Positions 4,275-38,873 of a stretch of 64,000 nucleotides of DNA are shown here, one piece after another. Numbering within the stretch: the first letter of the stretch is position 1; each line of letters starts with the position of its first letter. The notes below the pieces were generated by a model, which did no database searches, was not told the origin of the DNA, and was given only the letters and a program-made list of their open reading frames with translations. Origin of the DNA: an uncultured Candidatus Bathyarchaeia archaeon (GTDB taxonomy: Archaea > Thermoproteota > Bathyarchaeia > 40CM-2-53-6); contig CAZRNA010000001.1 of assembly GCA_964601325.1 (NCBI GenBank), positions 4,042-68,041 on the forward strand. Direction: 5' to 3'. The position numbers and the translations under genes are program-made.

Positions 4275-4285
4275 CCTTCTCGTCT

Positions 4286-7825: not shown

Positions 7826-7834
7826 GAGCCGCGA

Positions 7835-8776: not shown

Positions 8777-8861
8777 TGCCGAGCATTCTGGTCACTCTCG
8801 GTCCGTCCAAGCTTGGGGAATGCGTCGTCTGCGTGGATTGAAGCCTCAACGCTTCGGAAGC

Positions 8862-9407: not shown

Positions 9408-9483
9408 TCAGTCTGCCTTCTTCTTGCAGCATTCCGCTGCGGCTTGGTAGAGACGACGCGTGGGCGAGTTGCTACACAGTCCT

Positions 9484-10044: not shown

Positions 10045-10066
10045 ATCACGTTCCCCTGTCCGGTTG

Positions 10067-10567: not shown

Positions 10568-10627
10568 CACTTGAACCGGCAAGCGGCTAACGCAGAACAA
10601 ATCAGGAATTAAACCTTCCCCAAGGAG

Positions 10628-11155
10628 CTAGTCGTGCTCGTGCTGGGCCGTCGTCTTTGTCAGAGGCTTCCTTAGGAGAAGCCTGTCATCGCCGCTCGGA
10701 TACCATTTCCTGTCAACCCGAACGTCTGAGAAGCCTAGAGCATGATAGAAGCTTCGGGTTCTGGCGTAGGGCTCGTACTCAACCGAGTCAGCGACAGTAG
10801 ACACTTCGAGCGCTGAGACACCTGACTTCACGAGGACCTCCTCAAGGGCCTTCACGAGACGGCGACCGACCCCTTTCCGGTGAGACCCTGGATGAACCGC
10901 GATCCAAGTCAACTCGGCAACTTTCTCGCCCGCTGTGATGACGTAGGTGACGAAGCCAATCATGCTCTCGTCTTCCAATGCAACCAGTCCCTTCTGAGTC
11001 TGGAGATCTTTTGCAATATGTTGTACTCCAAGTTCAGTGAACCATTGATGAAGTGCCTTCGCCATCTCGACTATCGCCGTGTGATCTTCCTGAATGATGC
11101 GTCTGATGCCCAGGGTCATGTTATCCTCGGAGCTTGTGGCATAGGGCTCCTTCAT
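10628..11155 (-). CDS. GNAT-family N-acetyltransferase (RimI-like)
   Basis: 'HPGSHRKGVGRRLV' corresponds to acetyl-CoA-binding motif A (Q/RxxGxG/A). Confidence 0.6.
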   Translation of the reverse strand: MKEPYATSSEDNMTLGIRRIIQEDHTAIVEMAKALHQWFTELGVQHIAKDLQTQKGLVALEDESMIGFVTYVITAGEKVAELTWIAVHPGSHRKGVGRRLVKALEEVLVKSGVSALEVSTVADSVEYEPYARTRSFYHALGFSDVRVDRKWYPSGDDRLLLRKPLTKTTAQHEHD

Positions 11156-11226
11156 GTCTCTTAGGCTGACTATCAGAATCTTAATTGAAGAGCCGTCCCT
11201 CTAGCGAAAGTACGTGGCGTATTCTC

Positions 11227-12639: not shown

Positions 12640-12669
12640 GCTGGCCATTACGATTCGAGACTGCGTACA

Positions 12670-13311
12670 GTGCTCTACGCGGTTCCCCACCGAAGGACCG
12701 ATAAAAGCCCGCTGTCAGACTACGTCTCGAAGAGTAATCGACAGAGCGGCTTCATGTTGGCAAGCAGGTTCAGAACAGCCGTGCACGCATCGGCCCTATT
12801 GATCCCGTTCATCGCGGAGGTCACATCAAAATCCACAGTCGCCGTGGCTCTTGTAGCTACGACCGCTGCTTACATTCTGTCGGAGGTACTACGTCTCAGA
12901 TCCAAGAACGTCCCATTGATCACGCGATTCACACTGGCAATGAGTCGTGAGGACGAAAGTCCCCGTTTGGTCGTTGCACCGATCTACCTAGCAGTTGGTG
13001 TGGTTCTCTCTCTGCTCGCTTTTCCGAAGAACATCGCATACGCTTCAATCACCATCGTCGCGGTGGGCGACCCGGTGGCATCGTACCTTGGCAGAAAGCT
13101 CGGTCGAATACATGTGAGGCAGAAGACGTTGGAGGGTTTCGCTGGCGGCTTGATTGTTTCATTTGCGGCCGCGTTGCTCTGGGTTCCTCCTCATCTTGCG
13201 CTGGTAGGCTCAATTGGTGGGATGTTATTCGAGCTTCTCGGACTCCTTGATGATAACCTTACGATTCCAGTTGGTGCGGGGTCAGCAATGCTGATCACGA
13301 GCATTCTGTAG
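12670..13311 (+). CDS. CTP-dependent polyprenol/phosphatidate transferase-kinase family membrane protein (CDS / dolichol kinase / DUF92-like)
   Basis: 213 aa with about 6 TM helices. 'VGDPVASYLGRKLGRIHVRQKTLEGFAGG' resembles the C-terminal signature of the cytidylyltransferase / dolichol kinase family. Confidence 0.4.
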   Translation: MLYAVPHRRTDKSPLSDYVSKSNRQSGFMLASRFRTAVHASALLIPFIAEVTSKSTVAVALVATTAAYILSEVLRLRSKNVPLITRFTLAMSREDESPRLVVAPIYLAVGVVLSLLAFPKNIAYASITIVAVGDPVASYLGRKLGRIHVRQKTLEGFAGGLIVSFAAALLWVPPHLALVGSIGGMLFELLGLLDDNLTIPVGAGSAMLITSIL

Positions 13312-13397
13312 CCCTTCACGTTTCTTGATGCAGAAGAAAGTTTGCGAGCAACCGCCTTCGACAGCTTGACCAGTTCGTTGCGGACAGCAAACGGAGA

Positions 13398-14132
13398 TCA
13401 GACTCCTAGGTGCAGTCGGTCGGCTAGTAGTTTTGGAAGTCCGGCTGCAACTATCTTGCTCGCAGCCGCGTCGATGTCGTAGGCGACTCTGTGTATCTGG
13501 AATTCGGGTTCTGCAAATGGTTCAAGAATCGCATAACTTGCCCGCGCGTTCCCGTCTCTGGGTTGACCGACACCGCCAGGATTCCCAAGCAACATTGAGT
13601 CAAACTTACGAAAGAAGGGGACGTGCGTGTGTCCGAGCAGGAGCATAGTCCCTCCGGAGCCTTCGACCAGACTCCTGAGAATGAACTCCGCAGTATCCGG
13701 GTAGACATACTCGTTGAGAGGATCCCTTGGACTTCCGTGCGCTAGGGCAATCTTGATGCCGTCCACAACGTAAGTTGTCTTCGTGCGCAGGCTCGCGATA
13801 TACCGTAGGTTTTCAGGTGAAATCTTCTTGCGTGTCCATTCGACAGCTTGCACTGCATACTGCACAAACCCTGACGTGTCGCCAGTCGAGACTGCATAGT
13901 CATGGTTTCCCATTACGATGGCCATTGGTCTCAACGATCTGATCTCGGATACGACTTCGTTTGGCTGGGCACCGTACCCGACAAGATCGCCGAGGCACAC
14001 CAAGGCTTCATAGTCACCTATTGCTGACAGAACCGCTTGCAAGGCATCGTAGTTAGAGTGGATATCTGAGATCACTGCGATCCGCGTTGTCTGTTCCGTG
14101 TTCGCGAAGAACTTGGGCGTCTCCTGATCCAT
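13398..14132 (-). CDS. Metallophosphoesterase (YfcE/MJ0936-like)
   Basis: 'IAVISDIHSN' (DxH), 'CLGDLVGYG' (GD), 'MGNHD' and 'GHTHVP' are present. The start is probably the second Met, which abuts the AAA gene stop. Confidence 0.6.
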   Translation of the reverse strand: MDQETPKFFANTEQTTRIAVISDIHSNYDALQAVLSAIGDYEALVCLGDLVGYGAQPNEVVSEIRSLRPMAIVMGNHDYAVSTGDTSGFVQYAVQAVEWTRKKISPENLRYIASLRTKTTYVVDGIKIALAHGSPRDPLNEYVYPDTAEFILRSLVEGSGGTMLLLGHTHVPFFRKFDSMLLGNPGGVGQPRDGNARASYAILEPFAEPEFQIHRVAYDIDAAASKIVAAGLPKLLADRLHLGV

Positions 14133-16735
14133 TAGGCTCTTTCGCCGTATGTTTCTAGGAATCCCCGACATTCTTCAATAGATTCCTTGGTTATCGAAGG
14201 CTTGATTCCCTTGACGGCGTTCTGAAGGTCTCGCGTTGTGATCTTCTCGTGTTCTATCCCCTTTACCGTATCGCGTACTGCTGTCATCTTGGCTTCTCTG
14301 ACGATCGCTGCTATGTCTGCGCCGCTGTAGCCCTCCGTTGACCTTACTAAGACGTCATAGTCGAGGTCGGCCATTGGAGATTCACGCAGTTCAATCTGGA
14401 ATATTGCCCTTCTTGCCTCATGGTCGGGCGGGGGAACGTACACTATCTTGTCAAATCGCCCAGGTCGCAGCAAAGCTGCATCGACCCAATGCGGTTTGTT
14501 TGTTGCTGAGAGCACCATCACATTTCGCAGATCTTTGATCCCGTCCATCTCAATCAGCAGTTGTGAGATAGGCTTGACTGCTTGTGTACCTGCTTCCCGT
14601 GAAGAGGCAAGACTCTCTATCTCGTCTATGAAAACTATCGCGGGAGTGTTTTCTCGAGCTCTATAGAAGAGCTCTTTTATCGCTGCGGCTATTTCTCCCG
14701 CCGACTTGTGAGAAAGTTCCCCTCCACTTGTAGTCAGAAAAGTGGCCTCTAATGAACCCGCGGCTGCTTTCGCAATCAGCGTTTTCCCACATCCTGGGGG
14801 TCCGAAGAGAAGCAGGCCCTTCGTGGACTGAAGACCATATTTCTTCATGAGTTCAGGGCGTTTGAGTGGCAGCTCTATCGTCTCCATGATAATCCGCTTG
14901 ACGTTGTCCAATCCTGCGATGTCTGCGAAGGTCACTCGAGGCTTCAGTTCCTCTTCTTTTCTTGACGTTCTTCTTTCGAAGTCTAGCCTCAACTTCTCGT
15001 AGTCTTCGAGCATTTGGATCGTGATGCTGGGCTTGTAGGTGCGAATGGTCTGTGCGAGTTCACTCATTCCGATCGGTACGACTTCTCCTCCTTTCATTGC
15101 TCTCTTGGCGACGTCAACTGCAGTCATCTGCACAGCATTTCGAATGTCGGCACCAGAGAATCTCTCGGATAGGGCAGCCAACTTGTCGTAGTCCACATCT
15201 GCCGCCATCGGTTTGTCTTTGCAGTGTACTTGGAAGATCGCTTTCCTAGCTTCTTTGTCTGGCGGCGCAATGTAGATCACTCTATCGAAACGTCCGGGCC
15301 TTAGAATGGCCTCGTCTAGAAGTTCTGGCTTGTTTGTGGCGCCCACGACCAAGAGCATTGCCTTCTCCTTCTCCAAGCCGTCCATTTCAGAGAGCATCAA
15401 GCTCAGCAGGCGGGGCGTAATATCGTCTGAACCATACAGGTCTCTCTTCTTGGCTATTGAATCGATCTCGTCAAAGAATAGGACCGATGGCGCGGTGGAT
15501 CGCGCGAGTTTGAATACCTCCGTGACTCGCTTCTCGCTTTCCCCGTACCACTTCGAGACGATGTCAGAAGTCTTCACATAATAGAAATTCGACTTCAGAG
15601 TCTGTGCGAGGGCTTTCATCAGAAGGGTCTTTCCACAACCTGGAGGGCCAAAGAGGAGAATTCCTCTAGGGGGTTCCGCTCCGTACGTTCTTGCAACATC
15701 AGATTTCTGTAGTGGCATCAGCACGGAGTCGTGGATCTCCTGCTTGAGCTGGCTGTAGCCTCCTATCTGGTCCCAGGCCAATTCCGGCTTGGCCTCTCTC
15801 TTCTCGAGTACGGGTTGAGCCACGGTCGTTGTTTGCGCCGCCCTAGCCTTCTGAAGAGCTGTCATCCTCGAGAGGTCCGTTCTTGCGAGTTGAAGAGAGA
15901 AAGTCACGAAGAGACCAAACGCTAATCCAAACATCATCTCGAACCCAAAATTCGATACAAAGATTGAAGATCCATAGGTGTAGGCAGCGGCCAATGGCAA
16001 GAAGCCTAACGCAGTCGCCACCGTCCACGGGTAAGCTCGTGTCCACTTCTTGGCGACCATCCCTGTAACGTATCCCGCTAGGCCCCAGCAGGCCGTCTCG
16101 ATGTAGAACGTCACATCGTCTATGAGATTCCTGAGCAACGTGGCTTGAAGTTGCCCGTATGCCGCCGGACTAGGACTTCGTGAATCATAGATGAATGATA
16201 GAGGAAGCCATGGATCCGGCAGTGGCTGAGGTGGCTGAACAGTAGGGACGTAGGGCACCACCAACAGTGCAAAGTTCGTTGTTCCCTTCATCCAGCCTAG
16301 CAAGAAGAGAGAAACCGCTAGACTCACTCCAGCCAATGCTCCATCCTTCGATCCAATGACCAAGCCACAAACAATCAGGGGCACGAACGCGATGATTGAG
16401 AGCGGGGAAAGAGCCAACGCCCATGCCAAGACCACCAGAGAGAGCGAGGGCCAAGTTCTATTCAACGCAAGCACGAGAAGGCATAGGGAGGCATAGACTA
16501 GTCCGAAGAACGTATTCTGGTAGTAGGCCGGGAGGATCGACAAAAACAGTCCCGTCGCAAGCGCGGCCATTGGATACTTCAAAGAAAGGATGAAAATGCC
16601 GATAACGAGAATGGCGACGATGAATAACGGGAAATACGGGAAAAGAAGCAAGACATAGAGGGACAGACAGACTGCAACCAGGCCACGAAAACTCCTGATC
16701 AGAATCGGAGAGCCAAGGAGGTCCATTCTCGTCAA
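14132..16735 (-). CDS. Membrane-anchored Cdc48/VCP-like tandem AAA+ ATPase. The first about 290 aa form a polytopic membrane domain, followed by D1 and D2 AAA modules
   Basis: Two 'GPPGCGKT' Walker A motifs are each followed by 'DEID/DEIE' Walker B and second-region-of-homology Arg ('RPGRFD'). The N-terminal 290 aa are almost entirely hydrophobic helices. Confidence 0.8.
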   Translation of the reverse strand: MTRMDLLGSPILIRSFRGLVAVCLSLYVLLLFPYFPLFIVAILVIGIFILSLKYPMAALATGLFLSILPAYYQNTFFGLVYASLCLLVLALNRTWPSLSLVVLAWALALSPLSIIAFVPLIVCGLVIGSKDGALAGVSLAVSLFLLGWMKGTTNFALLVVPYVPTVQPPQPLPDPWLPLSFIYDSRSPSPAAYGQLQATLLRNLIDDVTFYIETACWGLAGYVTGMVAKKWTRAYPWTVATALGFLPLAAAYTYGSSIFVSNFGFEMMFGLAFGLFVTFSLQLARTDLSRMTALQKARAAQTTTVAQPVLEKREAKPELAWDQIGGYSQLKQEIHDSVLMPLQKSDVARTYGAEPPRGILLFGPPGCGKTLLMKALAQTLKSNFYYVKTSDIVSKWYGESEKRVTEVFKLARSTAPSVLFFDEIDSIAKKRDLYGSDDITPRLLSLMLSEMDGLEKEKAMLLVVGATNKPELLDEAILRPGRFDRVIYIAPPDKEARKAIFQVHCKDKPMAADVDYDKLAALSERFSGADIRNAVQMTAVDVAKRAMKGGEVVPIGMSELAQTIRTYKPSITIQMLEDYEKLRLDFERRTSRKEEELKPRVTFADIAGLDNVKRIIMETIELPLKRPELMKKYGLQSTKGLLLFGPPGCGKTLIAKAAAGSLEATFLTTSGGELSHKSAGEIAAAIKELFYRARENTPAIVFIDEIESLASSREAGTQAVKPISQLLIEMDGIKDLRNVMVLSATNKPHWVDAALLRPGRFDKIVYVPPPDHEARRAIFQIELRESPMADLDYDVLVRSTEGYSGADIAAIVREAKMTAVRDTVKGIEHEKITTRDLQNAVKGIKPSITKESIEECRGFLETYGERA

Positions 16736-21805: not shown

Positions 21806-22831
21806 CTAAGTTTCCCTTCGAACCATGAATCGAGCAAGGCCCTCAATGGTATCTCTAGCGCTCGATTTCGGGAGTCTCTTGAGGGCGCTCAACCCGTCTT
21901 CGATGTATCTATCTGCTAGGCTCTTCGCGTGATCTAAGCATCCGTATTTCCTGTACAGGTCAATTGCTTCACCGATCTCTTCTTGTGAAATCGTCGACTT
22001 TCCGAGCACTTTCATGAACCGTTCCCTGTCTTCTGCCGAGGCGGATTTGACAAGGTGTGCGGCCATGATGGTCCGCTTGCCTTCTCTGATGTCGCCGCCG
22101 ATCTCCTTCCCGTACTTGTGAACGTCACCAGTGACATTCAATAGATCGTCAACGATCTGAAAGCCCACGCCTGTGGCTTCGCCGAACTTGGTTGCAGCAG
22201 ACAGCTGACTCTTTTTTCCGCCTGCTGCGATCACGCCCGCCTCACAGGCCAAAGCAATGAGCGCGCTTGTCTTGTTCCGGAGCACTTCGATAACGTCCTC
22301 TTCAGTGAAGTCCTGTCGGTTATTGAGTTCGAATTCCAGTGCTTGACCTTTGGTAATCTGGAACGCCCTGTCAGCGAATCGCTGAATGAGCTTGTTCTTG
22401 GTCGTCGCGTCAAGTGATCCGCCTGTGGCGGCTTCGAAGACTTTGATCAGCATCGCGTCGCCGGAGTTGATTGCTGTCGATTGCCCGAACATTATGTGGA
22501 TGCACGGTTTCCCTCGTCTTAGTTCGCTCTGGTCCTCGATGTCGTCATGAATCAACGTCATGTTGTGGAGGATCTCAATTGCGCCTGCGGCTGGAAGGGC
22601 TCTTCGTTCTTGACCTCCAACTACTTTGCAGAAGAGAAGTGTGAGGGCTGGCCTGAACCTCTTTCCTCCACGATCGAGTAGTTCCCACATCGGCTGATGA
22701 AGCGTGCCGGGTTGGCCGGCCCGCGGAATGTATTCTTCGATTTGTCGATTCACCATAGTTGCGTACTTTTCAAGCACAGAATTTAGTTCGCTCATGGGTA
22801 ACTGACGCTCTTGAGGCATTAGTGTTGTCAA
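21806..22831 (-). CDS. Geranylgeranyl diphosphate synthase (short-chain trans-prenyltransferase)
   Basis: First DDxxD motif is 'LIHDDIEDQSELRRGKP' and second is 'FQIVDDLLNVTGD'. Confidence 0.8.
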   Translation of the reverse strand: MTTLMPQERQLPMSELNSVLEKYATMVNRQIEEYIPRAGQPGTLHQPMWELLDRGGKRFRPALTLLFCKVVGGQERRALPAAGAIEILHNMTLIHDDIEDQSELRRGKPCIHIMFGQSTAINSGDAMLIKVFEAATGGSLDATTKNKLIQRFADRAFQITKGQALEFELNNRQDFTEEDVIEVLRNKTSALIALACEAGVIAAGGKKSQLSAATKFGEATGVGFQIVDDLLNVTGDVHKYGKEIGGDIREGKRTIMAAHLVKSASAEDRERFMKVLGKSTISQEEIGEAIDLYRKYGCLDHAKSLADRYIEDGLSALKRLPKSSARDTIEGLARFMVRRET

Positions 22832-22865: not shown

Positions 22866-25146
22866 CTAGTCGTGGGAGGTTGTGTCGTCTTCCCTGTATG
22901 GGGCTGTGAGTAACTTTCTGATCCGCTCAGAGATCTTCTTGCCTATGCCCTCTACGTTTTGAAGTTCCTTGTCTGATGCCAAGAAGACCCTCTCCACTGT
23001 GCCGAATGCATTCAGCAGCCGCCTTGCGATGACCGTGTCGACTAGCGGCAGACCTGCCACAACGAATTCCTGTTCGCGCGCGAGTGAGTCGGGCTTGCGT
23101 TCCATTCTTATTCGGGGCCGGCGCTCTCCCTTTGACTGCTCACGCCTTGCGATTGAGAGCAGCAGGAGAGCGGTCTCAGAGGGGCTTCTAGTCCACACCA
23201 CGGGTACACCGAAGTCTACGATGATGCTTGCAAGTGCCCCCATGACAGCCTCTGGTGCGATGTTACGCGCGGTCTGGAAACCCTCTCCCTCGATCAGCAG
23301 GATCGGCATCTCGTACGCTGACTTGAGGTTGGAGATCTGCTCGAACAATCTCCCATCGATTATAGATGCAACAAAATCCTCAACGGTCTTTCGTTCTATC
23401 GCCGTTCGGTCTGAAATCACGAAGTCGCCTATGCTGAGCGTCTCCTGGGTGATGAGGATGTCGTACTTGGAAAGTTCCCTAGTAGTCGGTGAACCTAGTT
23501 CACGCGCGTCAACGATTATCGTCGGCTTCTGCGATGTCACTATCACAGGTTCCTCCTTCAGGAACTCCTCCAAGTTAGGCTGGTCGAGGTCCGTTTCGGT
23601 CGCCTGAGACGCGACCTGCTTCAACGCAACGGCCATCATCCTTTCTCTTCGTCGAGAGATGTAATAGTATGCCTCATCCCTAGTTCCAATGGCCATGAGC
23701 ACTGTTGCCTTGCCAGGACCCTTCCTGCCCGTCCTTCCCCTCCGCTGAATGTATCGGATCGCGCTCGGCACTGTGTCGTAGAATATGACCTCGTCACATT
23801 CAACGATGTCTAGACCTTCTTCACCGATCTGGGTGGCGACCAAGACATTGTATTCGCCTGACTTGAAGTCCTCAAGAAGCATCGTCTGCTGCTTCTGAGA
23901 AAGGCCCTTGTCGGCGCTCTTCGTCTGCTGCCCCACAAGCCTTACGGCGGAGATGCCTGGCTGCTTGCTCAGCTCTTCAACAAGCCTAGCTGCGGTTGCT
24001 CTATAGTTGGTGAATACCATGACGCGCCTCGAACCGAGCGCAAATGTCTCTGTGATCCTCTTGAGGAGAACTTGCAATTTCGGATGCTCGTTCCCTTTGT
24101 CTATTTCCTGCGATGCTACTCTCGAAATATCTACGATCCTTGAATCCTCAAGAAACGCTCTGAGCCAGGGCATTGCTCGCTTCTTCAGTCGTTCTTGCAA
24201 GCTGTCAAGGTAGGCTTTCAGCGGGGAGAATCCCTGTGTCTCGAGGAGTTCCATCGCCTTGAGCGCATGAATTGAGGAATACAGGCCGAACGATATTCTT
24301 CGAAGCAGGTTCTTTGCAGCCGGCTCATGTATTGTGTCATGGCGTATCTTCTCTCTTGCTTCGAGAATATCGCGTAGACGAATTCGGTCCGCGTCAGCGG
24401 TGGGCAGATAGCCATAGTCTCTGGCTCCCTTCAGCACGTCCTTCACGTAGTCATCGAGCAACCGTTTGACTTCTCGGAAAACGGGGGGCAGTTCCACGGG
24501 GACCCAGTCGACCTTGATTCCTCCGACGAAAGGTTTCACGTCTTGATCTGAGATCGTGCGGGCCTCAATCCGTTTGATGTTGAGACGGTTGCAGACTTCC
24601 TGTATTGCCTCCTTGGTTGATCCCGGAGAAGCGGTGAGTCCAAGCACGAGGCCATGCGGGACTTTGCTGTATCGCTCTCCGATGTACGTGTAGGCGTAAT
24701 CGCCGACAGCTCTATGTGCCTCATCGAAAACGAGGAGACATATCCCAGCCAAGTCGATCTTGCCGGATATGAGATCATTAACGAAGACCTGAGGCGTTGA
24801 GACGACTAGGCGTTTCGCCCAAGCCTGACTCCTGTCATCCGGGGAGGTCTGTCCTGTTATGCAGGCGAATTCTTCAGGATCAAGTCGAAGCAAGCCTTTG
24901 AACGTCTTGTAGTGTTGTTCGACTAGTGGGCGTGTCGGCGCCAGCACCACCACGTGCCTTGCAGGGTACTGTTCTAGTCTCTTTGCGGCGACTAGAGCAG
25001 CGATCAGGGATTTCCCCAATCCTGTTGGTATGGAGACGAGTGTGTTGGCACGAAGTGCGTTCTCGGCTACCCTCTCTTGATACGTTCGCCTCTCGACCGA
25101 CTCTGCATTGATCAGAGGATGATCGAAGAGGCTGAGGTGAGCCAAG
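22866..25146 (-). CDS. hef: Hef-type helicase-nuclease (FANCM/XPF-like): DEAH helicase plus ERCC4 nuclease plus HhH2
   Basis: 'IPTGLGKS' (motif I), 'FDEAHRAVG' (DEAH) and 'RRGRTGR' (motif VI) mark the helicase. 'GDFVISDRTAIERKTVEDF' is the ERCC4 nuclease motif, and the C-terminus carries helix-hairpin-helix. The ORF-track start at 25256 overlaps the divergent DHH gene, so the likely start is a TTG near 25146. Confidence 0.8.
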
Positions 25147-25231
25147 TCTATCAACTCACAGCGTGATGTCGAGCGAATTAAGAATTGCCAAGCGGATCGC
25201 GGAGAAACACCCTGCCTGAAATACTTGAGGC

Positions 25232-26203
25232 TTGCATGGTGAGTTGGGAACGGCAATGCAGATCATAGCGCATGAGGATGCTGACGGAATCTGTAGCGCA
25301 GCAATTGTGAGGATGACTAACCCGTCTGCAAGGGTATTCTTCAGCAAGCCATGCAGTCTGCTGCATGATCTTGATCAGATGGAGACTCGAAGAGATCTTG
25401 TCGTACTCGATCTGGCACTGTGCGAACTTGCGAAGGAACAGATCGTAAGCAGACTGTCTCGCTGGGGTGGCAGAGTCCTCTACATCGATCACCATCCCGA
25501 CACTGCAATCTCCTTCCCAAGGCGGTCCAGCGTCGAGGTTGTCGCCGGCGACGTTTCAGCCTCGGAGTTGACGTTCACTCACCAGGGATCAGGCCTCAGA
25601 AGAGAAGCTGAGCGCATTATGCTGATGGGTGCAATCGGCGATTATGCGGATCTGACACCATTCTGCGTCGATCGTCTGAACAGGTGGGATAAGCGCTCTG
25701 TCTTCCTCCAAGCAGGCTTCCTGTGTGGAGCATTGGAGGTTACGCGACCCGATCACGAGTTTCATAGGCAGATTGTGGATCTCCTAGCTAGCTGTAGACC
25801 TCCCTGCGAAGACAGTAGAATCGTAGCATATGCGGTCAAGGCGAGCGAGCTAGAGGAATCGTTCAGGCAACGTGTAGAGAAGAGTGCTCAGAAGCTTGGG
25901 AGGATAGGTGTTGCCTATGACTTGAACGGTCCTGCCGGGAAGGGCGCAACCTATGCTGCTGCCGCTGCGGCCGTTAGCATCGGAGCTTACGTCGACAAGG
26001 ACATGCGTCGTGGCTCTGCGGATATTTCCTTTCGTGTCATTGACCGATCGGTTGACATGAACAGGATCCTTCGAACAGTCGCCCCCAAGCTGGGCGCCTC
26101 AGGAGGAGGACATCCGGAGGCCTGTGGCGCTCGGGTTCCTCTCGACAAGCTCGATGAGTTCTTCCAAGCGGTAAATGACATGCTGGCACCTAGCACGAAC
26201 TAG
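25232..26203 (+). CDS. DHH/DHHA1 phosphoesterase (NrnA/RecJ-like nuclease)
   Basis: 'IAHEDADGICSAAI' (motif I), 'YIDHHPD' (DHH) and C-terminal 'SGGGHPEACG' (DHHA1 GGGH). Confidence 0.7.
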   Translation: MHGELGTAMQIIAHEDADGICSAAIVRMTNPSARVFFSKPCSLLHDLDQMETRRDLVVLDLALCELAKEQIVSRLSRWGGRVLYIDHHPDTAISFPRRSSVEVVAGDVSASELTFTHQGSGLRREAERIMLMGAIGDYADLTPFCVDRLNRWDKRSVFLQAGFLCGALEVTRPDHEFHRQIVDLLASCRPPCEDSRIVAYAVKASELEESFRQRVEKSAQKLGRIGVAYDLNGPAGKGATYAAAAAAVSIGAYVDKDMRRGSADISFRVIDRSVDMNRILRTVAPKLGASGGGHPEACGARVPLDKLDEFFQAVNDMLAPSTN

Positions 26204-27091: not shown

Positions 27092-27505
27092 TTGGGCTTT
27101 CTTGGAAATCATGCACCCTACGCGGCAGACTTGAATCTCGTCATCCAAATAGTCGTGCTTTCCATGTTGCTGGCTGGAGCATACTTTGTGAGAGCGTCGA
27201 AACTCAAAACTCATAGTCGTCTTATGAAATCGGCAATTATCACCCAGCTTGGTGCGCTGATCCTTTGGATGGGCCCATCCTTGGTGCTCAACATCGAGGC
27301 GTTGAGGTCGTTCACGTCTGGTGTGATCATTACAGCTCTGCATGCTCTAGGGGGCGTTTTGGCGCTGGCTCTCGCGATCAGTGCCTCTTACCATAGAACA
27401 ATTGGCTCTTTGCAGTTGAAATGGACTATGTGGTCAGCTTTCATCGTGTGGACTTCGACCGTAGTTCTCGGAATAGGCTTCTACGTTTACTACTACTTGC
27501 ACTGA
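27092..27505 (+). CDS. Hypothetical four-TM membrane protein
   Basis: 137 aa with four hydrophobic helices. Confidence 0.35.
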   Translation: MGFLGNHAPYAADLNLVIQIVVLSMLLAGAYFVRASKLKTHSRLMKSAIITQLGALILWMGPSLVLNIEALRSFTSGVIITALHALGGVLALALAISASYHRTIGSLQLKWTMWSAFIVWTSTVVLGIGFYVYYYLH

Positions 27506-27558: not shown

Positions 27559-28419
27559 ATGAGCCTAATGAAACGACTCCAGCTTGACGAAAAAATCGAT
27601 CTCAGGCTTGCCTCAAGACTCGCGCTCCGATTCTACGCTGACACTAGACCACACACTCTTCAGACAGGAGGACTTCACAAGGGTGCCATTGTTGTCTGTA
27701 ACGGTACAGAACTTGTCGAAGAGGCACTTGGAATCGGTGTCCCGGTGTGCAGGTATCAGGACGGTGCGCGATTCTCACTTAGCGCGGACACATTTCTCGA
27801 CGATTCCAACGAGAATCCAACACTGATCAAGATCTATGACATGAATGGGATAGCTTCGAAGAGATTCCGCGGATTGCCAATACGACGCGGAAGTTCCCTT
27901 GCGAGCCTTCTCAAGGCCCTGGAGAAAAGATATCGCGTCTTGCACAGGTTCAGAACCGTAGCAACCGTGATGCTGGACATTCTTAGTCTGTTTGGGATGA
28001 GAAATGAGTACTTAGAGTCCCCCTCAAAAGGACAAGTCGCGGTTACTTATCGAAGGAAGGGTAGAGGCTTGCAGATCGAGGCCACTCTCGACGAACTGTC
28101 CCGCGAAGGTCTACAGAACATCGTCTTTGCGAATGAGCAAGGAGGAAGGCTATTCAATGAATATGAGGATTCAACCGGGATCAGGCTTCATGACACACAA
28201 ATTGAACCTTGGCGAACGACCCAAGCAGAGTGGGCGAGTCTGCGTTCCCGAGTGTTCGGTGTTGGATTCAGACTAAACCGGCCAAGCGGGTGGCTCATGG
28301 TGAGGGGAAGAGAGGTCGTCAGAAACCGCATTTCTTGGTCCGGTCTAGACTTGTCTTGTGGGGAGTTGCCTCAGAAATTGGAGTATCTGGTAGAGATAGC
28401 CGGAGAATGTGTTAGTTGA
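27559..28419 (+). CDS. Hypothetical protein. The start is probably the internal Met at about 27559, and the gene is cotranscribed with the downstream B12-radical SAM gene
   Basis: The long ORF has a 4-nt overlap (28416) with the next gene. No motifs are recognised. Confidence 0.4.
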   Translation: MSLMKRLQLDEKIDLRLASRLALRFYADTRPHTLQTGGLHKGAIVVCNGTELVEEALGIGVPVCRYQDGARFSLSADTFLDDSNENPTLIKIYDMNGIASKRFRGLPIRRGSSLASLLKALEKRYRVLHRFRTVATVMLDILSLFGMRNEYLESPSKGQVAVTYRRKGRGLQIEATLDELSREGLQNIVFANEQGGRLFNEYEDSTGIRLHDTQIEPWRTTQAEWASLRSRVFGVGFRLNRPSGWLMVRGREVVRNRISWSGLDLSCGELPQKLEYLVEIAGECVS

Positions 28420-29792
28420 CTGACGTTGCTCTCGTCTATCCATACTTTCGGCCACCACGGGATGGATCTCCATTCAGATTTCCTCCTCTGGGACTTGGCT
28501 ACATCGCGTCCCACCTCAGGAATCACGGACTATCCGTGGGACTCGTTGACTGCACCTTCAAATCAGAAGATTCAGTGCTTCGCGCCGTCAGGGGTCTGAA
28601 CCCGTCGATCATTGGAGTCTACTCGATGTTTTCCATGAGCGCATCCACACTTCGCTTGGCCGGACTGTTGAAGGACGACTGCGATCTGCTCGTTGCCGGA
28701 GGCCCGCTTCCCACACTCTTCCCCGAAGACTACCTGAAGGTGTTTGACGCTGTCTGTATCGGGGAAGGAGAGGAAACGATGCTCGAACTCGCAGAAGCAC
28801 AGCTTGAACGACGAAAGCTCTCTGAGGTCAAAGGAATCTGTATCAGAACGGATCACGAGTCGAATACGACGAGCGAATCTATCATACGGACGCCTGCTCG
28901 GCCTCCAATTCATGATCTTGACTCCATTCCATTTCCCTCAAGAGATCTATTCGACAACGCGGAATACAAGGAGTATTTTAGGAGACGTTTCGGTCGTGAA
29001 GAGACTTCAATTATCACAACTCGGGGATGCCCATTTGATTGCGATTTCTGTAGCAGACCTATCTTCTCAAACCAGTTCAGAGCGAGATCCGCAGGAAATG
29101 TGGTCGATGAGCTAGAGCAGATTTCTGAACTCGGGTACGATTCTGTGTGGTTCTCCGATGATTGCTTCACACTAATCCCGAGCAGAGTTCTACATGTCTG
29201 TCGAGAGATCAAGAGCAGAGGCCTTGAACTGAAGTGGGAGTGCCTTTCAAGAGTCGACGGTTTTAGCGTTGACATGGCGAGGGAGATGAAAGCGGCTGGA
29301 TGCGAACGAGTATTCTTTGGAATCGAGTCCGGCGACGATGGAATTCTCAGGCAAATGAACAAACGAATTGATATCGATCAAGCACGCAAGGCCGTCGAGG
29401 CAGCTGCGAAGGCAGAGTTGAGGGCCGCCGCATTCTTCATCGTCGGCTATCCAGGAGAGACTGACTCAACGATACTACGGACGATTAGGTTCGCAAGTAG
29501 GCTTCCTCTCGACTACGCTTCATTCAGCCTTCCGTATCCGATTCCCGGGACCGGTCTCTATGACAAAGTCAAGGATAGACTGCGTGAACGGGATTGGCGG
29601 TATTCAAGTTGGAGACTGATCGACCATTCACTGCTGTATGACTCTGATTTCTCGGAGTTCAAACTGAAGTTCGCGATTGCCAAGGCAGCTATTCAACACC
29701 GAGTGAGGAAGCACGGCGGCAAATGGGGATACAGATTGTTCGGCACGCCCTTCGAAGCGCTTACGGACTTGGCCTTCAGGAGCCTGAGCTAG
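28416..29792 (+). CDS. Cobalamin-binding radical SAM enzyme (class B radical SAM)
   Basis: The N-terminal domain looks like a B12-binding Rossmann fold ('VALVYPYF...LGLGYIASHL...CDLLVAGGP'). Radical SAM motif 'CPFDCDFC' (CxxxCxxC). Confidence 0.75.
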   Translation: MTDVALVYPYFRPPRDGSPFRFPPLGLGYIASHLRNHGLSVGLVDCTFKSEDSVLRAVRGLNPSIIGVYSMFSMSASTLRLAGLLKDDCDLLVAGGPLPTLFPEDYLKVFDAVCIGEGEETMLELAEAQLERRKLSEVKGICIRTDHESNTTSESIIRTPARPPIHDLDSIPFPSRDLFDNAEYKEYFRRRFGREETSIITTRGCPFDCDFCSRPIFSNQFRARSAGNVVDELEQISELGYDSVWFSDDCFTLIPSRVLHVCREIKSRGLELKWECLSRVDGFSVDMAREMKAAGCERVFFGIESGDDGILRQMNKRIDIDQARKAVEAAAKAELRAAAFFIVGYPGETDSTILRTIRFASRLPLDYASFSLPYPIPGTGLYDKVKDRLRERDWRYSSWRLIDHSLLYDSDFSEFKLKFAIAKAAIQHRVRKHGGKWGYRLFGTPFEALTDLAFRSLS

Positions 29793-31087
29793 AGATCGAT
29801 TTCGATAGGCACATTCGGGTGATAGCGTCGAGGATCCGTTACTTGATTCTTCTGAGTGCGGGGATTCAACTCGCGCTCGGCGCCTTCACGGCACACCCCT
29901 ATGATGGACGAGTGTTCATGGCTGCTGGATACTTGGTGGCTCATGGCAATTCGCCCTATGTCCTCACGAGCGTTTCCAGCGTCTTTGGGAATTCACTCTT
30001 CCCCGACCCCGTTCCAGGCATCGGCTATCCTCCTCCTTGGGGCCTAGTATTGGCGTTATCCTATCTTGTCAGCTACAATATTGTCCCTAACCTGATCCTG
30101 TACAACTTCGCCATCAAGATCCCCATAGTCATCGGCAATATCCTTCTGGCTTTGCTAATCGGAAAAATGATCCTCAGCGCGACTTCTGATTCAACCAAGT
30201 CAGCAAACGCAACTCGCTTCATGCTGTTCAACCCATTTGTCATCTACACTACAGCCATCTGGGGACAATTTGATACGCTCAGTGCACTTCTGATGTTGCT
30301 CGCCATTTTCGAACTCACTCAAGGCAAGCGGCGTCTTTCAGCCTTGGCCTTGGGAGGAGCTATTGCATTCAAGTTGATCCCTGTTGTCCTGCTTCCTCTT
30401 CTGATCTTGCACGTAAGAAAACGCGAAAACTGGTTCCGTGCGTTCGAGTATTTTGCGTTCGTCGCTGCCGTTGTTGGGCTCTCATTTTTCCCGTTCTTGA
30501 TCGGTTGGAGTCCCCAACCCATCATCGATAACTGGAACATCCATTTTGTCCGAATCGGGGCGTTCTCGCCGATGAACGTATTACTTCTCCTTGGATTAGC
30601 CGGCGCCACAAATGGATTCAGCTTCCTGGGATTCCTCTGGTTGCCCTCTCTAGCGTTGGTCTACTTCATTCTCATTAGAAGAGGGACCATCAGATCCACG
30701 GACCTTGTGCTTCCAGCTCTCGCCGTGATGTTGGGAGTCTTTCTCACCAGATCATGGGTATCTGAACAGAACCTGAACTTTGTCGTTCCCCTTGTTCTCT
30801 TATCCTCCGTTAGGCAGGGCTGGTCTAAGAAGTGGGTTTCATCTACGTGGTTGCTCCCGCTGATATTCGCAGTGGTCCATACTTCGCCCACGAGCATGCT
30901 CTTCCTAACAGCGCCTCAGCCACTCATAGAACATACCCAACTCCAGCTGCAGCTCTTCTTCACGTCAGAGTTGGGCAGCGTAATACGAGCTTCGATAACG
31001 CTTGTGTGGCTCGCCGTGGGCCTTTCGCTCCTCCGAAAGTCGGTTCATTCCACCGGTCCCTCTCTTTCTGAAAGAATACCACAATAG
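29723..31087 (+). CDS. GT-C fold polyprenyl-phosphate-sugar-dependent membrane glycosyltransferase (DUF2029 / GT87-like)
   Basis: About 12 TM helices with a DUF2029-like N-terminal region. The start is uncertain because the ORF overlaps the radical SAM end by 70 nt. Confidence 0.5.
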   Translation: MGIQIVRHALRSAYGLGLQEPELEIDFDRHIRVIASRIRYLILLSAGIQLALGAFTAHPYDGRVFMAAGYLVAHGNSPYVLTSVSSVFGNSLFPDPVPGIGYPPPWGLVLALSYLVSYNIVPNLILYNFAIKIPIVIGNILLALLIGKMILSATSDSTKSANATRFMLFNPFVIYTTAIWGQFDTLSALLMLLAIFELTQGKRRLSALALGGAIAFKLIPVVLLPLLILHVRKRENWFRAFEYFAFVAAVVGLSFFPFLIGWSPQPIIDNWNIHFVRIGAFSPMNVLLLLGLAGATNGFSFLGFLWLPSLALVYFILIRRGTIRSTDLVLPALAVMLGVFLTRSWVSEQNLNFVVPLVLLSSVRQGWSKKWVSSTWLLPLIFAVVHTSPTSMLFLTAPQPLIEHTQLQLQLFFTSELGSVIRASITLVWLAVGLSLLRKSVHSTGPSLSERIPQ

Positions 31088-31196: not shown

Positions 31197-31730
31197 GTGC
31201 CTCGTTTGAACGACATGTTGCTTGGAGGATCTGGAATGAACGCGAAATCTATGGTAGTTGTCGCGACGCTTCTTGCTATGGTAATCTTGGCTTACAACGC
31301 AAGCGCCTATGCATGGAACTCTTCTCCTCAGATAACGAATTCTCTTGACGGTTCTGGGAACACAGTTCTCACTATCCAATTCGATTTCTCGCAAATGTCG
31401 GATCCGCCCACGGCGAGTCACCACCCGACTGACTTCCAGGTTCGCACCTCTACAGACGGATCTTCATGGACCGAGCAGGCTGTCGTCCACATCACATCGA
31501 TACCGGCAACAACCGTATTCACCGTGACCTATTCTCTCGGGAAAGTCACAGGCGATCTTCAAGCCCAAGCAAGACTCAATTGTAACGTCCATGGATGGAG
31601 TAACTGGGGACCGGACCCGGCAGTCCCTGTTCCGGAATTTCCCTTCGGAATGGTCACTGTGACCTCACTGTTGCTCCTGGTGGGAAGCCTCCTACTGGTC
31701 CGCAGGGAACGCCCAGCGTATTCGTCCTAA
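31197..31730 (+). CDS. Secreted protein with signal peptide and PEF-CTERM-like C-terminal sorting signal
   Basis: N-terminus 'MNAKSMVVVATLLAMVILAYNASAYA'. C-terminus 'PVPEFPFGMVTVTSLLLLVGSLLLVRRERP' has a PEF tripeptide, then a TM helix, then an Arg-rich tail. Confidence 0.45.
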   Translation: MPRLNDMLLGGSGMNAKSMVVVATLLAMVILAYNASAYAWNSSPQITNSLDGSGNTVLTIQFDFSQMSDPPTASHHPTDFQVRTSTDGSSWTEQAVVHITSIPATTVFTVTYSLGKVTGDLQAQARLNCNVHGWSNWGPDPAVPVPEFPFGMVTVTSLLLLVGSLLLVRRERPAYSS

Positions 31731-31829: not shown

Positions 31830-32711
31830 CTAGGCGCTCTGCTCTCTTAGTCTCTTTTCGGCTAACCGGCAGTAGTCTCGATTAATTTCCACGCCTATTC
31901 CAATTCTATTGGTCTGCAGGCATGCAATCAGTGTGGTTCCGCTACCGAGGAATGGGTCCAAGACGACGTCTCCTTTGTAGCTGAACAGTTTGATGCATCG
32001 TTTCGGCAGTTCGATGGGGAACGGTGCCGGGTGCCCAATCTTGGTTTTGCTTTCGCCGCTGAAGTTCCACACACCATTCGTCCATTGGATGAACTCATCG
32101 CGTGTGACATCTGATTCTCCTTTCCGCATCTTCTCCCACCTAGCTTTGTACATGACCAATATGGTCTCAACTGGCGCGATCACATAGGGTGCGGAAGCGC
32201 TCATCCACGATCCCCATGCTGTGCGTCTAGAGATGTTTTGCTCATTCCAGACGATTGTTGAGTGATACTTCCATCCAACTTCCTTCGCGATGGTCGTGAT
32301 GTCGGCGCACACGCTCTGCTGACCACCCTTGTTCTTGTCTAGCGGGATATTCAGGCACAGGCGCCCGTCAGGTCTGGCCAAGCCTAGAATCTTCGACAGC
32401 CACTTCCTGGTGAAATCGAGATACTGATCATACGGCAGATTGTCGTCATAGCCCCGGTACTTGATGTTGATGTCGTATGGAGGCGATGTCACGATGAGGT
32501 CTATACTCTCGTCTTGTATCGCATCGATCTCCAAGATGTCCGTATTGTAGATGCGTAGCGAGCTTGCCTCTGAGAACGGTTTCGTAGCTTTTTCAGGCGC
32601 CATTTGCTTCAGGCTTCTTCGAGCGATCCATCTGTTCACTGACGGCTTTACTCGTGGCAATGTCAAGGTATAAGAGTTTGACAAGGACTCCGGGGCGTTC
32701 ATACACTTCAA
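31830..32711 (-). CDS. Beta-class DNA methyltransferase (N4-cytosine or N6-adenine), apparently orphan
   Basis: 'IVTSPPYDINIKY' (motif IV, SPPY) precedes 'LDPFLGSGTT' (motif I, FxGxG), the beta-class order. No restriction endonuclease candidate is adjacent. Confidence 0.75.
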   Translation of the reverse strand: MKCMNAPESLSNSYTLTLPRVKPSVNRWIARRSLKQMAPEKATKPFSEASSLRIYNTDILEIDAIQDESIDLIVTSPPYDINIKYRGYDDNLPYDQYLDFTRKWLSKILGLARPDGRLCLNIPLDKNKGGQQSVCADITTIAKEVGWKYHSTIVWNEQNISRRTAWGSWMSASAPYVIAPVETILVMYKARWEKMRKGESDVTRDEFIQWTNGVWNFSGESKTKIGHPAPFPIELPKRCIKLFSYKGDVVLDPFLGSGTTLIACLQTNRIGIGVEINRDYCRLAEKRLREQSA

Positions 32712-38312: not shown

Positions 38313-38873
38313 TCAACTCGATAGCGGCCGTGAGGCCCACTTCTTTTCCTCAACGCCCGCGCGTTTGTCCACGACTCTGGCCAATACAAACAGCAGGGAG
38401 GATAGGCGATTCAAGTACGGAACAAGCGGAGGATCCAGTTTCTCTTCTTGCGCGAGCGTAATAGTTCTGCGTTCTGCGCGCCTGGCGATGGTCCTAGCCA
38501 CATGTAATGCGGCGGCAGGGCCGGTTCCATTCGGAATTATGAAGGCCGACAGTGGCGACAGTTCGGCGTCGAGTCTGTCGATCTCTTGCTCAAGATGCTT
38601 AACCATATCTTGAGTGACCTGTGCCTTCTGTGCACGGGACTTCTTCTGACGCGTGGCGAGTCCTGCGCCGACGAGAAAGAGGTCTTGCTGAACCCCCTCC
38701 AGTATAGTGTCGATCTCATCGTCTTCAATCAGTGATCGCGTGTATCCTATCCAGCATGACAACTCATCCACGGTGCCGTACGCCTCAACCCTGAGGGAAT
38801 CCTTCGCAACCCTCTCGCCTGAGAAGAGACCAGTCTCTCCGCCATCTCCGGTCCGCGTGTACATTCTCGGCAT
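38313..38873 (-). CDS. ATP:cob(I)alamin adenosyltransferase, PduO/MMAB type
   Basis: 'MYTRTGDGGETGLFSGERVAKDSLRVEAYGTVDEL' is the canonical PduO-type N-terminus. 186 aa. Confidence 0.75.
   Translation of the reverse strand: MPRMYTRTGDGGETGLFSGERVAKDSLRVEAYGTVDELSCWIGYTRSLIEDDEIDTILEGVQQDLFLVGAGLATRQKKSRAQKAQVTQDMVKHLEQEIDRLDAELSPLSAFIIPNGTGPAAALHVARTIARRAERRTITLAQEEKLDPPLVPYLNRLSSLLFVLARVVDKRAGVEEKKWASRPLSS

Follow-up and report, generated by a model that had tools for sequence, protein, structure and literature searches.

A radical SAM enzyme, a partner protein of predicted carbohydrate-enzyme fold and a GT-C glycosyltransferase: a conserved gene cluster of Bathyarchaeia as a candidate module for tailoring lipid-linked sugars

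What does a radical SAM enzyme do when its gene lies between one for a protein of no named family and one for a membrane glycosyltransferase? The question is raised by three neighbouring genes of an uncultured member of the Bathyarchaeia, which are among the most abundant archaea of sediments and peat and about whose envelope chemistry, to our knowledge, almost nothing is known. The locus poses three issues: (i) whether the genes belong together, (ii) what the first of them encodes and (iii) whether the radical SAM enzyme acts on a lipid tail or on a sugar. Features of the window (the whole stretch of DNA analysed, 64 kb) that bear on these issues are collected in Table 1.

Table 1. Genes of the cluster and its surroundings in the 64-kb window.
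Feature	Coordinates	Strand	Remarks
DUF420-like 4-TM membrane protein gene	27092..27505	+	137 aa; upstream of partner gene
Partner gene ('unk', ORF 1)	27559..28419	+	283-286 aa; probable start ATG 27568
Radical SAM gene of class-B architecture (ORF 2)	28416..29792	+	458 aa; TTG start; orthogroup 'rSAM-A'
GT87-like GT-C gene (ORF 3)	29843..31087	+	414 aa from TTG 29843; alternative GTG 29819
Small secreted/surface protein gene	31197..31730	+	about 165-177 aa; downstream of GT-C gene
Corrinoid adenosyltransferase gene	38313..38873	opposite strand to cluster	PF01923, 3.9e-60

The preliminary description reported three co-directional open reading frames at 27559-31087 with overlapping ends, and the three frames are indeed present. 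The partner stop and the radical SAM start share 4 nt (28416/28419; TTGA), and the enzyme would be translationally coupled to the partner protein. The second overlap, 70 nt between the radical SAM and GT-C genes (29723/29792), is a start-codon artefact: ATG 29723 is an unlikely start for the GT-C gene, and stop codons lie upstream in the GT-C frame of the three closest genomes. The gene caller starts the GT-C at the TTG, with GAGGA 8 nt upstream; with either this codon or the alternative GTG, the gap from the radical SAM stop is therefore 26-50 nt. ATG 27568 is the likelier partner start, since it gives 283 aa, as in most homologues, and follows an SD-like GGAG 11 nt upstream. A single operon for the three genes, as originally suggested, is plausible. 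The promoter and terminator scan was uninformative, with counts no higher than the shuffled expectation and consensus patterns that are bacterial and ill suited to archaea, and neither RNA families nor tRNAs were found within the window.

The adjacency of the three genes is more than chance. Neighbourhood in related genomes had been named at the outset as a test of the cluster, which passed it: the order partner, radical SAM, GT-C is kept in the three nearest Bathyarchaeia genomes (L006, L007 and L008; 64-74% identity), and the three families also occur together in distant lineages. Three complete sequences, a Bathyarchaeota genome (L003), a Freyarchaeum genome (L004) and an Anaerolineales chromosome (L062), also have the partner gene next to the radical SAM gene, as do Dehalococcoidia (L065, L066, L068) and others; sampling from the radical SAM side found the partner gene directly upstream in 4 of 5 orthologues. 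Partner, radical SAM and GT-C are found together in nine loci, with a tenth (L076, an Actinomycetes MAG) in which the tblastn table alone lists a GT-C, a partner and a split rSAM-A-like match. Three different clades of class-B radical SAM enzymes pair with partner paralogues. A glycosyltransferase (GT-C or GT2) or class-B radical SAM gene lies within four genes in 70 of 76 partner-family loci; a GT-C, GT2, PMT_2 or c11 membrane protein does so in 58, a figure that overstates the number of independent events because many of the glycosyltransferase-linked loci are related Bathyarchaeia with common synteny. GT-C homologues occur in 39 of the 76 loci, and GT2 genes in 39 related loci (27 of the membrane type, PF13632, and 12 of the PF00535 type). 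All sequences compared are from uncultured organisms, and a literature search on the partner-radical SAM pair found nothing.

The key part of the cluster is the partner protein, the hub of the system. It had been described as a 287-aa protein without recognisable motif; although neither Pfam nor NCBIfam gives a match and none of its sequence relatives has a known function, a confident structure prediction gives it a galactose-mutarotase-like β-supersandwich fold, which is common to carbohydrate enzymes and carbohydrate-binding domains. Membership of the aldose 1-epimerases or hexose-6-phosphate mutarotases was rejected: there is no Aldose_epim match, and the catalytic His/Glu pattern is absent. 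The family comprises 607 clusters at 50% identity, and its conserved residues K41, E55, K91, E193 and E252 would line a cleft of the partner. The partner is cytoplasmic. Around residues 106-147 it forms a helical hairpin, cationic and amphipathic, that contains its most amphipathic 18-residue window and would hold the protein at the membrane surface. This 41-aa hairpin is present in 72 members and absent from five members of an Anaerolineae subfamily, and exactly these five are the only ones with a signal peptide or TM segment. Two gene fusions tie the family directly to glycosyltransferases: P0361 joins a GT87-like GT-C to a partner domain, with a K/R-rich tail after the last TM segment of the GT-C, and P0364 joins a GT2 (PF00535) to a partner domain.

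For the radical SAM enzyme, the original domain assignment stands. Pfam finds B12-binding (7.7e-17) and Radical_SAM (9e-28) domains, the N-terminal Rossmann-type B12-binding domain of class B is present, and the CPFDCDFC motif (C205-x3-C209-x2-C212), invariant in 43 orthologues, fits the CxxxCxxC motif of a [4Fe-4S] cluster. Sequence comparison assigns the enzyme to a new orthogroup, rSAM-A, whose members share 47–58% identity from Bathyarchaeia to Asgard and Chloroflexota and almost always adjoin a partner gene. Its closest full-length structural relative is AprD4 (PDB 6fd2), which, together with AprD3, is the radical SAM 1,2-diol dehydratase of apramycin biosynthesis. Cobalamin binding does not follow from the Pfam match, because AprD4 has a similar B12-binding-like domain and binds none. 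Curated class-B families all score far below their NCBIfam cut-offs: PhpK, the best, reaches 152 bits against 600; HpnJ, the second-best, 147 against 578, so that the enzyme is not an HpnJ member; BchE 144 against 481; AprD4 118 against 500; and MgmA 110 against 360. The cut-offs of ApyD, the ladderane radical SAM enzyme, HpnR, TIGR04295 and other curated class-B families are likewise not reached.

The enzyme is also distinct from those that modify archaeal lipid tails. The tetraether desaturase Ted, described with its partner Hgs from Candidatus Bathyarchaeota B1_G15 (DRO69_02625), was searched for by its authors at E <= 1e-100 and >= 500 aa (bioRxiv 10.1101/2025.10.20.683597). Its locus (L089) was recovered here from the published primer sequence; Ted lies outside the rSAM-A clade and has 31% identity to the cluster enzyme over 429 aa (E 3e-42; 614 versus 458 aa), and identity with Ted/Hgs is further ruled out by gene order and partner fold. 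Against Grs, identity falls to 22% over 198 core residues (E 2e-4), the comparator being solely the Grs-like 571-aa radical SAM enzyme that adjoins Ted and is so named from the paper's description of the locus. Homology to MJ0619 (PDB 7tom), the measure used for Tes / GDGT-MAS, was not found.

The third gene was correctly recognised as a GT-C of the GT87/DUF2029 type. The GT87 model (PF09594) scores 38.9 bits against a cut-off of 25 (E 1e-9) and the PIG-U model 28.4 against 24.5 (E 1e-6), and the protein has about 12 hydrophobic segments. The Asp of an HPYD motif in the first loop, just after TM1, is conserved in more than 90% of about 45 homologues and is the putative catalytic residue; K, W, R and E positions are conserved as well. 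No PDB chain was matched by sequence, even at E 10.

Upstream, a small and divergent DUF420-like protein, absent from the preliminary description, is a fourth member of the cluster. The window protein scores 19.9 bits against a gathering threshold of 30.5 for DUF420 (PF04238; E 9e-4), and 7 of 11 homologues match at E <= 0.1, the best at 5e-7. The homologue alignment has an invariant H84, a near-invariant H41 and an MxPS motif. Homologues lie near the partner gene, the radical SAM gene or both in eight loci (L007, L008, L041, L048, L059, L061, L087, L088) and about 3.4-4 kb away in L004 and L006. The DUF420 literature describes no function, and opinions differ even on whether DUF420 is related to haem A synthase. 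Downstream, the small surface protein is probably, if tentatively, a fifth member: its translation starts like a signal peptide and ends in a PEF motif, a TM segment and a basic tail, and a 65% identical homologue occupies the same position in L008. It matches no Pfam or NCBIfam family, the PEF-CTERM model included; its C-terminus may resemble a PEF-CTERM sorting signal, and it is possibly an acceptor or cargo. The nearby corrinoid adenosyltransferase, to which the preliminary description drew attention, is a genuine gene; its link to the cluster does not hold up. It stands on the opposite strand at a distance of 7 kb, separated from the cluster by ABC-2 transporter genes and by genes for a DNA methylase, a CDF transporter and a CARDB protein, and no such gene stands near the pair in the gene tables of L003, L004 and L086-L088.

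Taken together, these observations are best explained by a module at the membrane surface in which a lipid-linked sugar is tailored before the GT-C uses it, as part of a pathway to a cell-envelope glycoconjugate; we put the probability of this reading at about one half. Its core would be a two-protein unit, the cytoplasmic supersandwich partner together with a class-B-architecture radical SAM enzyme of its own. A GT2 whose gene lies elsewhere in the genome would make a substrate anchored in the membrane, either a polyprenyl-phosphate sugar or a glycolipid, and the partner would bind the sugar head of this substrate. The radical SAM step on the sugar could be a C-methylation that depends on cobalamin or, in the manner of AprD4, a dehydration or rearrangement that does not. 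After flipping, the GT-C would use or extend the lipid-linked sugar on the outer face, with surface proteins as possible acceptors, for instance the product of the next gene downstream, and the DUF420-like protein in an accessory role. The model draws on the conservation, the glycosyltransferase links and fusions, the fold and location of the partner, its repeated pairing with radical SAM enzymes and AprD4 as a sugar-acting structural neighbour. The genes with their domains, the partner's fold, the adjacency, the fusions and the separation from lipid-tail enzymes are shown; attachment to the membrane, substrate, chemistry, sequence of steps and acceptor are inferred. Against the model counts that no GT2 or other sugar-activating gene was found in the 64-kb window. 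Of the lipid and glycan modifications originally proposed, the lipid-linked glycan is the candidate that the evidence favours; the GDGT idea is not supported. A bolder and distinctly more tentative version would make the partner family a previously unrecognised membrane-surface adaptor or co-enzyme for lipid-linked sugars, with repeated recruitment of glycosyltransferases and of class-B-type radical SAM enzymes from three clades; the pair would make an undescribed surface-sugar modification (e.g. C-methyl, deoxy or ring-contracted) on a polyprenyl-phosphate carrier in Bathyarchaeia, Asgard archaea and Chloroflexota.

The main competitor holds that partner and radical SAM enzyme form a self-contained cytoplasmic system whose substrate is a sugar, sugar phosphate or nucleotide sugar in solution, altered for example by AprD4-like dehydration or by C-methylation, the adjacency of the GT-C reflecting at most a shared pathway. 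In several loci, among them two complete archaeal genomes (L003, L004) and two long contigs (L087, L088), no glycosyltransferase lies in the 6-7 kb read on the flanks of the pair; this counts against the main reading, since the substrate of the pair may then be a soluble sugar. Such a system would hardly account for the fusion of the partner to membrane GT-C and GT2 enzymes, for the TM anchor that replaces the cationic hairpin in one subfamily, or for the 4-TM membrane protein that recurs with the pair even in L087 and L088. An AKR and a flavodoxin, considered as its recurrent reductase partner, were found in Freyarchaeum only. We regard this alternative as unlikely, if a serious contender.

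Far less probable is that the genes are neighbours by shared ancestry only, with no common pathway and an unrelated role for the radical SAM enzyme in cofactor, RiPP or protein modification. Its NCBIfam similarity to PhpK, BchE, ApyD and MgmA, the last being also its third structural neighbour, is weak (about 110-150 bits against cut-offs of 360-750), no precursor-peptide-like or cofactor genes recur, and the adjacency of partner and radical SAM genes is kept across archaeal and bacterial phyla in several gene orders. About as improbable is that the enzyme works on archaeal membrane lipids, at their isoprenoid tails or their backbone, to introduce a GDGT ring, bridge or methyl group, a desaturation or a butanetriol; in favour of this speak a class-B architecture as in Grs, Gmm, the GDGT methylases and Ted, a host among the Bathyarchaeia, where Ted was found, and a polyprenyl synthase gene 4.3 kb upstream of the cluster.

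A 'hypothetical protein' has thereby become a defined family of sugar-enzyme fold with glycosyltransferase fusions, and rSAM-A a new, widely conserved orthogroup with a near-constant partner. The same partnership in other archaea and in bacteria points to undescribed tailoring of membrane-anchored sugars rather than of archaeal lipid tails, and cautions that not every archaeal class-B radical SAM gene encodes a GDGT-modifying enzyme. If the pair does tailor lipid-linked sugars, radical chemistry would be added to polyprenyl-phosphate glycosylation pathways common to archaea and bacteria, and a new glycan or glycolipid biomarker might follow.

Several known systems resemble parts of the cluster. 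AprD4 matches the radical SAM enzyme in sequence only at residues 161-387, has no partner of mutarotase fold, and its substrate, in actinomycetes, is a soluble aminoglycoside. The Ted-Hgs pair likewise consists of a class-B radical SAM gene overlapping a gene for a ~280-340-aa partner without Pfam match, in Bathyarchaeia; however, the order is reversed, Ted first and Hgs second, Hgs is AttH-like and unrelated to the partner here (E 0.12), and the Ted locus has a Grs-like gene and no glycosyltransferase. The OpgG/OpgD proteins of osmoregulated periplasmic glucan synthesis (OpgH-OpgG/OpgD), in which no radical SAM enzyme takes part, are periplasmic, of about 500 aa and in a Pfam family of their own, whereas the partner is cytoplasmic, of 283 aa and without sequence similarity to them; OpgH presumably belongs to PF13632. 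In hopanoid cyclitol-ether synthesis (HpnI/HpnK/HpnJ), a GT2 and a class-B-type radical SAM enzyme act on a lipid-anchored sugar head group, much as membrane GT2 genes accompany the partner family in 27 loci; here there are no hopanoid genes, and those pathways have neither GT-C nor supersandwich partner. The calditol synthase of Sulfolobus follows a similar logic, being a radical SAM enzyme that remodels a sugar already on a membrane lipid, again in a pathway not known to use a GT-C or supersandwich partner. Finally, GtrA/B/C, ArnC-ArnD-ArnE/F-ArnT and DprE1/E2 with GT-C arabinosyltransferases are three-component polyprenyl-phosphate-sugar systems: a sugar is loaded onto polyprenyl phosphate by a GT2, may be modified while it still faces the cytoplasm and is then transferred by a GT-C on the outside. 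The window, with no GtrA-like match and no recognisable flippase, holds less than the full Gtr/Arn set, and we know of no radical SAM tailoring or supersandwich partner in these systems. The likeness lies in the related loci that hold a GT2 (PF00535), a GT-C and a partner, the partner being fused to each of the two glycosyltransferases.

The three co-directional genes that the preliminary description assigned to this part of the window, encoding a partner protein, a radical SAM enzyme and a GT87-like GT-C glycosyltransferase, are all present where it placed them. The first two overlap as described, with the stop codon of ORF 1 and the start codon of ORF 2 sharing TTGA, and the domain calls for ORFs 2 and 3 (B12-binding plus Radical_SAM, and GT87) were matched in Pfam. 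ORF 2 has the cluster motif CPFDCDFC, and ORF 3 scores 38.9 bits against a threshold of 25 for GT87 (formerly DUF2029), also passing the threshold of the related PIG-U model. The proposed ORF 3 start at ATG 29723, with a 70-nt overlap, is not supported: stop codons lie upstream in the same frame in the three closest genomes. GAGGA lies 8 nt upstream of the TTG used by the gene caller. For ORF 1, ATG 27568 is most likely the start, giving 283 aa as in most homologues. No rRNA, tRNA or Rfam features were found within the window. It derives from an uncultured Bathyarchaeia archaeon; identical contigs occur in ENA assemblies, and soil and lagoon-sediment MAGs of Bathyarchaeota are its closest relatives among genomes.

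Coordinates of the cluster, other window genes and compared loci
Feature	Sequence	Position	Strand	Details
4-TM protein	window	27092..27505	+	137 aa; just upstream of partner; travels with cluster
ORF 1 (partner)	window	27559..28419	+	no Pfam or NCBIfam match
ORF 2 (radical SAM)	window	28416..29792	+	458 aa, TTG start; B12-binding 7.7e-17, Radical_SAM 9e-28
ORF 3 (GT-C)	window	start TTG 29843 (gene caller), alternative GTG 29819	+	Pfam GT87
Small protein	window	31197-31730	+	directly 3' of GT-C; signal-peptide-like N-terminus
Hef-type helicase-nuclease	window	22866-25256	-	full length; adjoins polyprenyl synthase
Polyprenyl synthase	window	21806-22831	-	
N6/N4 DNA methyltransferase	window	31830-32711	-	no obvious restriction partner
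Freyarchaeum pair locus	L004 (deiterrae CP147778)	3352-7359		
rSAM-A orthologue locus	L086 (Bathyarchaeia, JGI 3300038673)	7001-15365		
Larger cluster	L056 (Bathyarchaeota MAG)	6840-14990		
Protein overlapping Ted	L089	7917-8951		344 aa

The Hef-type helicase-nuclease (DEAD/Helicase_C, ERCC4 and HhH domains) and the polyprenyl synthase appear to have no link to the cluster. The methyltransferase sits between the cluster and a CDF plus ABC-2 transporter block.

The partner had been called motif-less, which holds for Pfam and NCBIfam but not for its modelled structure, in which a carbohydrate-enzyme fold can be recognised. A first search returned close relatives only; the radical SAM orthologues of Freyarchaeum and of a complete Bathyarchaeota genome are directly preceded by proteins that share 30-33% identity with the partner and 54% with each other. 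A profile search expanded the family to 607 clusters at 50% identity, and none of 40 diverse members matched a Pfam family. Fold relatives include the GH174 fucanase, the supersandwich domains of GH38 mannosidases and LacZ, polysaccharide lyases, aldose-1-epimerases, the hexose-6-phosphate mutarotase-like proteins YeaD, Slr1438 and HI1317, and OpgG and OpgD, with Slr1438 and HI1317 at the top of the Foldseek ranking. Because identity to these relatives never exceeds 13% and the family has no invariant histidine, membership of the epimerase family was ruled out and only the fold is shared.

The genomic surroundings of the partner point to glycosyltransferases. Eighty partner-family loci were fetched, mostly from Bathyarchaeia but also from Anaerolineae, Dehalococcoidia and Limnocylindrales and from Actinomycetes and Acidobacteriota MAGs, and ORFs flanking the partner were clustered and annotated; the "Limnocylindrales" contig L027, which clusters with Bathyarchaeia sequences, may be mis-binned or horizontally acquired. 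Within four genes of the 76 full partner ORFs, 58 loci have a glycosyltransferase of some listed type, many of these loci coming from related MAGs with synteny in common: a GT87-like GT-C (39), a membrane GT2 (PF13632; 27), a PF00535-type GT2 (12), a 12-TM protein, c11, weakly matching a "cell surface glycopolymer formation" model (15), or a PMT_2-type GT-C next to a gene of Wzy-like type (3). A class-B radical SAM gene occurs at 29 loci, and 70 of the 76 have a glycosyltransferase or a class-B radical SAM gene; among the six that lack both are short contigs of 2-7 kb (L013, L026, L040). The partner, radical SAM and GT-C genes occur together at nine loci, including the window and the complete Anaerolineales chromosome L062; at a tenth, in an Actinomycetes MAG (L076), a GT-C, a partner and a split rSAM-A-like match were seen in the tblastn table only. 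Two natural fusions, in which the partner domain forms the C-terminus of a GT87-like GT-C (P0361) or of a PF00535 GT2 (P0364), confirm the link with glycosyltransferases. In neighbour-joining trees without support values, built entirely from sequences of uncultured organisms, partners directly preceding the radical SAM gene form basal clades and glycosyltransferase-linked partners a large derived clade. Other paralogues adjoin two further class-B radical SAM clades. Taken together, the partner seems to serve as a hub linked with radical SAM enzymes as well as glycosyltransferases. Larger clusters in two Bathyarchaeota MAGs (L056 and L070) contain two partner paralogues, a GT-C and three class-B radical SAM genes of different clades, with a GH15-like fragment upstream in L056; they would be well suited to tracing the complete pathway.

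Archaeal and most bacterial partners have neither a signal peptide nor a TM segment. An N-terminal TM helix occurs only in one Anaerolineae subfamily (five loci), whose partners lack a helical hairpin of ∼41 residues that the other 72 all possess. The net charge of the hairpin ranges from 0 to +9 and is positive in all but two of the 72; the most amphipathic 18-residue stretch of the window's partner lies within it. In the GT-C fusion the tail past the last TM segment is rich in Lys/Arg, as expected if cytoplasmic, and on a reading of its sequence the GT2 fusion has no convincing TM segment between its domains. We infer that the partner lies on the cytoplasmic membrane face, held there by the hairpin or, in the TM-bearing lineage, by its helix. 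The TM-anchored, hairpin-less Anaerolineae partners (L073, L077-L079, L084) sit among a Wzy/O-antigen-ligase-like gene, an FG-GAP beta-propeller and a PMT_2-type GT-C; a SAM methyltransferase is encoded nearby, as is a more divergent radical SAM enzyme of class B (31-35% identity).

The radical SAM enzyme has many homologues, and its best 120 matches (54-94% identity) belong to Bathyarchaeia and to Freyarchaeum, an Asgard archaeon. All curated NCBIfam models score far below their cut-offs (the best, in bits, being PhpK 152 against 600, HpnJ 147 against 578, BchE 144 against 481, AprD4 118 against 500, MgmA 110 against 360). A confident model (pLDDT 90.3) superposes best on the sugar 1,2-diol dehydratase AprD4 (31.9, 412 residues aligned), followed by TsrM (30.8), MgmA (30.3) and CysS (28.2), and on Tes/GDGT-MAS (7tom) at 10.9 over the radical SAM core only. 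According to a recent review, AprD4 binds no cobalamin despite its Rossmann-like domain, so the "B12-binding" label is architectural and no proof of cofactor. Beyond the three cluster cysteines, C46, C250, C262, C276 and C296 are invariant in 43 orthologues and may be ligands of an auxiliary cluster or hydrogen-atom donors. The only sampled member of the orthogroup (rSAM-A) with no partner upstream, in L086, is followed by a second radical SAM gene and by genes for a 331-aa protein that matches no Pfam family, two NosD/beta-helix proteins and a CDP-alcohol phosphatidyltransferase.

Neighbourhood conservation holds in relatives: the order partner, radical SAM, GT-C is kept in L006, L007 and L008 (64-74%, 74-83% and 59-66% identity to the window). 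The 4-TM protein is DUF420-like but divergent, and two of its histidines are conserved; DUF420 has no established function in the literature. A homologue of the 4-TM protein stands before the partner gene in L007, L008 and L041, adjoins the pair or one of its genes in L048, L059, L061, L087 and L088, and lies ∼3.4-4 kb away in L004 and L006. The small protein, conserved in the same position in L008, carries near its C-terminus PVPEFPFG, which holds a PEF motif, and after it a TM segment and the basic tail RRER. This C-terminus presumably resembles an archaeosortase (PEF-CTERM-type) sorting signal, and the protein could be a glycosylation target.

A lipid or glycan modification pathway had been proposed, of which lipid-linked sugar tailoring is the most likely mechanism. 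We give a probability of about one half to the general model that partner and radical SAM enzyme tailor a membrane-anchored sugar later used by the GT-C. A GT2 encoded elsewhere in the genome (none lies within the 64-kb window) would make this sugar, and the partner would bind its head group at the membrane surface. The translationally coupled radical SAM enzyme would then act on the sugar by cobalamin-dependent C-methylation or AprD4-like cobalamin-independent chemistry. The product would be flipped and used by the GT87-like GT-C at the outer side of the membrane, with surface proteins like the neighbouring one as possible acceptors.

In the main rival, which is less probable, the substrate of the pair is a soluble sugar or sugar phosphate. 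Several points speak for it: the pair stands alone in L003, L004, L087 and L088, where the 6-7 kb read to either side hold no glycosyltransferase; the nearest structure is that of AprD4; hexose phosphates are bound by stand-alone proteins with the partner's fold; and the pair in Freyarchaeum is directly preceded, in the same direction, by genes for an aldo-keto reductase and a flavodoxin. This last set recalls a dehydratase, reductase and electron donor, but it occurs in no other fetched locus. An unrelated role is improbable.

Chemistry on isoprenoid lipid tails, the other half of the original proposal, is very unlikely. Ted, a class-B radical SAM tetraether desaturase of Bathyarchaeota described in a 2025 preprint, is encoded by a gene that overlaps that of the AttH-like hydratase Hgs beside a ring-synthase gene (bioRxiv 10.1101/2025.10.20.683597). 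Its locus (L089, Ga0180300_10001364) was recovered through the 5' end of a published cloning primer; the gene overlapping that of Ted encodes a 344-aa protein which should be Hgs and which, at the thresholds used, matches nothing in Pfam or NCBIfam. The window enzyme was rejected as Ted (614 aa, 31% identity) and as Grs (Ted's Grs-like neighbour, 22% identity over the radical SAM core only), and the partner as Hgs (unrelated, E 0.12). A neighbour-joining tree, without support values, of the class-B enzymes in all fetched loci places the window enzyme inside rSAM-A, nearly every member of which adjoins a partner gene, and Ted outside it. The clade includes enzymes from Dehalococcoidia and the complete Anaerolineales chromosome (47-48% identity), bacteria from which archaeal-type isoprenoid ether lipids are not known, which argues against GDGT or archaeol tail chemistry.

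No description of the pair or the partner family was found in the literature searched. The fold and the enzyme superfamilies have been described before; new are the radical SAM orthogroup and the partner family, which has no name, and their combination is undescribed. The proposed logic of the cluster resembles that of known systems of which it is not a member. In the Arn pathway and in DprE with the arabinosyltransferases, a sugar bound to a polyprenyl-phosphate carrier is likewise tailored and then moved by a GT-C. HpnI/K/J and calditol synthase similarly use a class-B-type radical SAM enzyme to remodel a lipid-bound sugar. The pairing of a membrane GT2 with a supersandwich protein in OpgH/OpgG is mirrored by the partner family, and the bathyarchaeial Ted-Hgs system is alike in gene layout.
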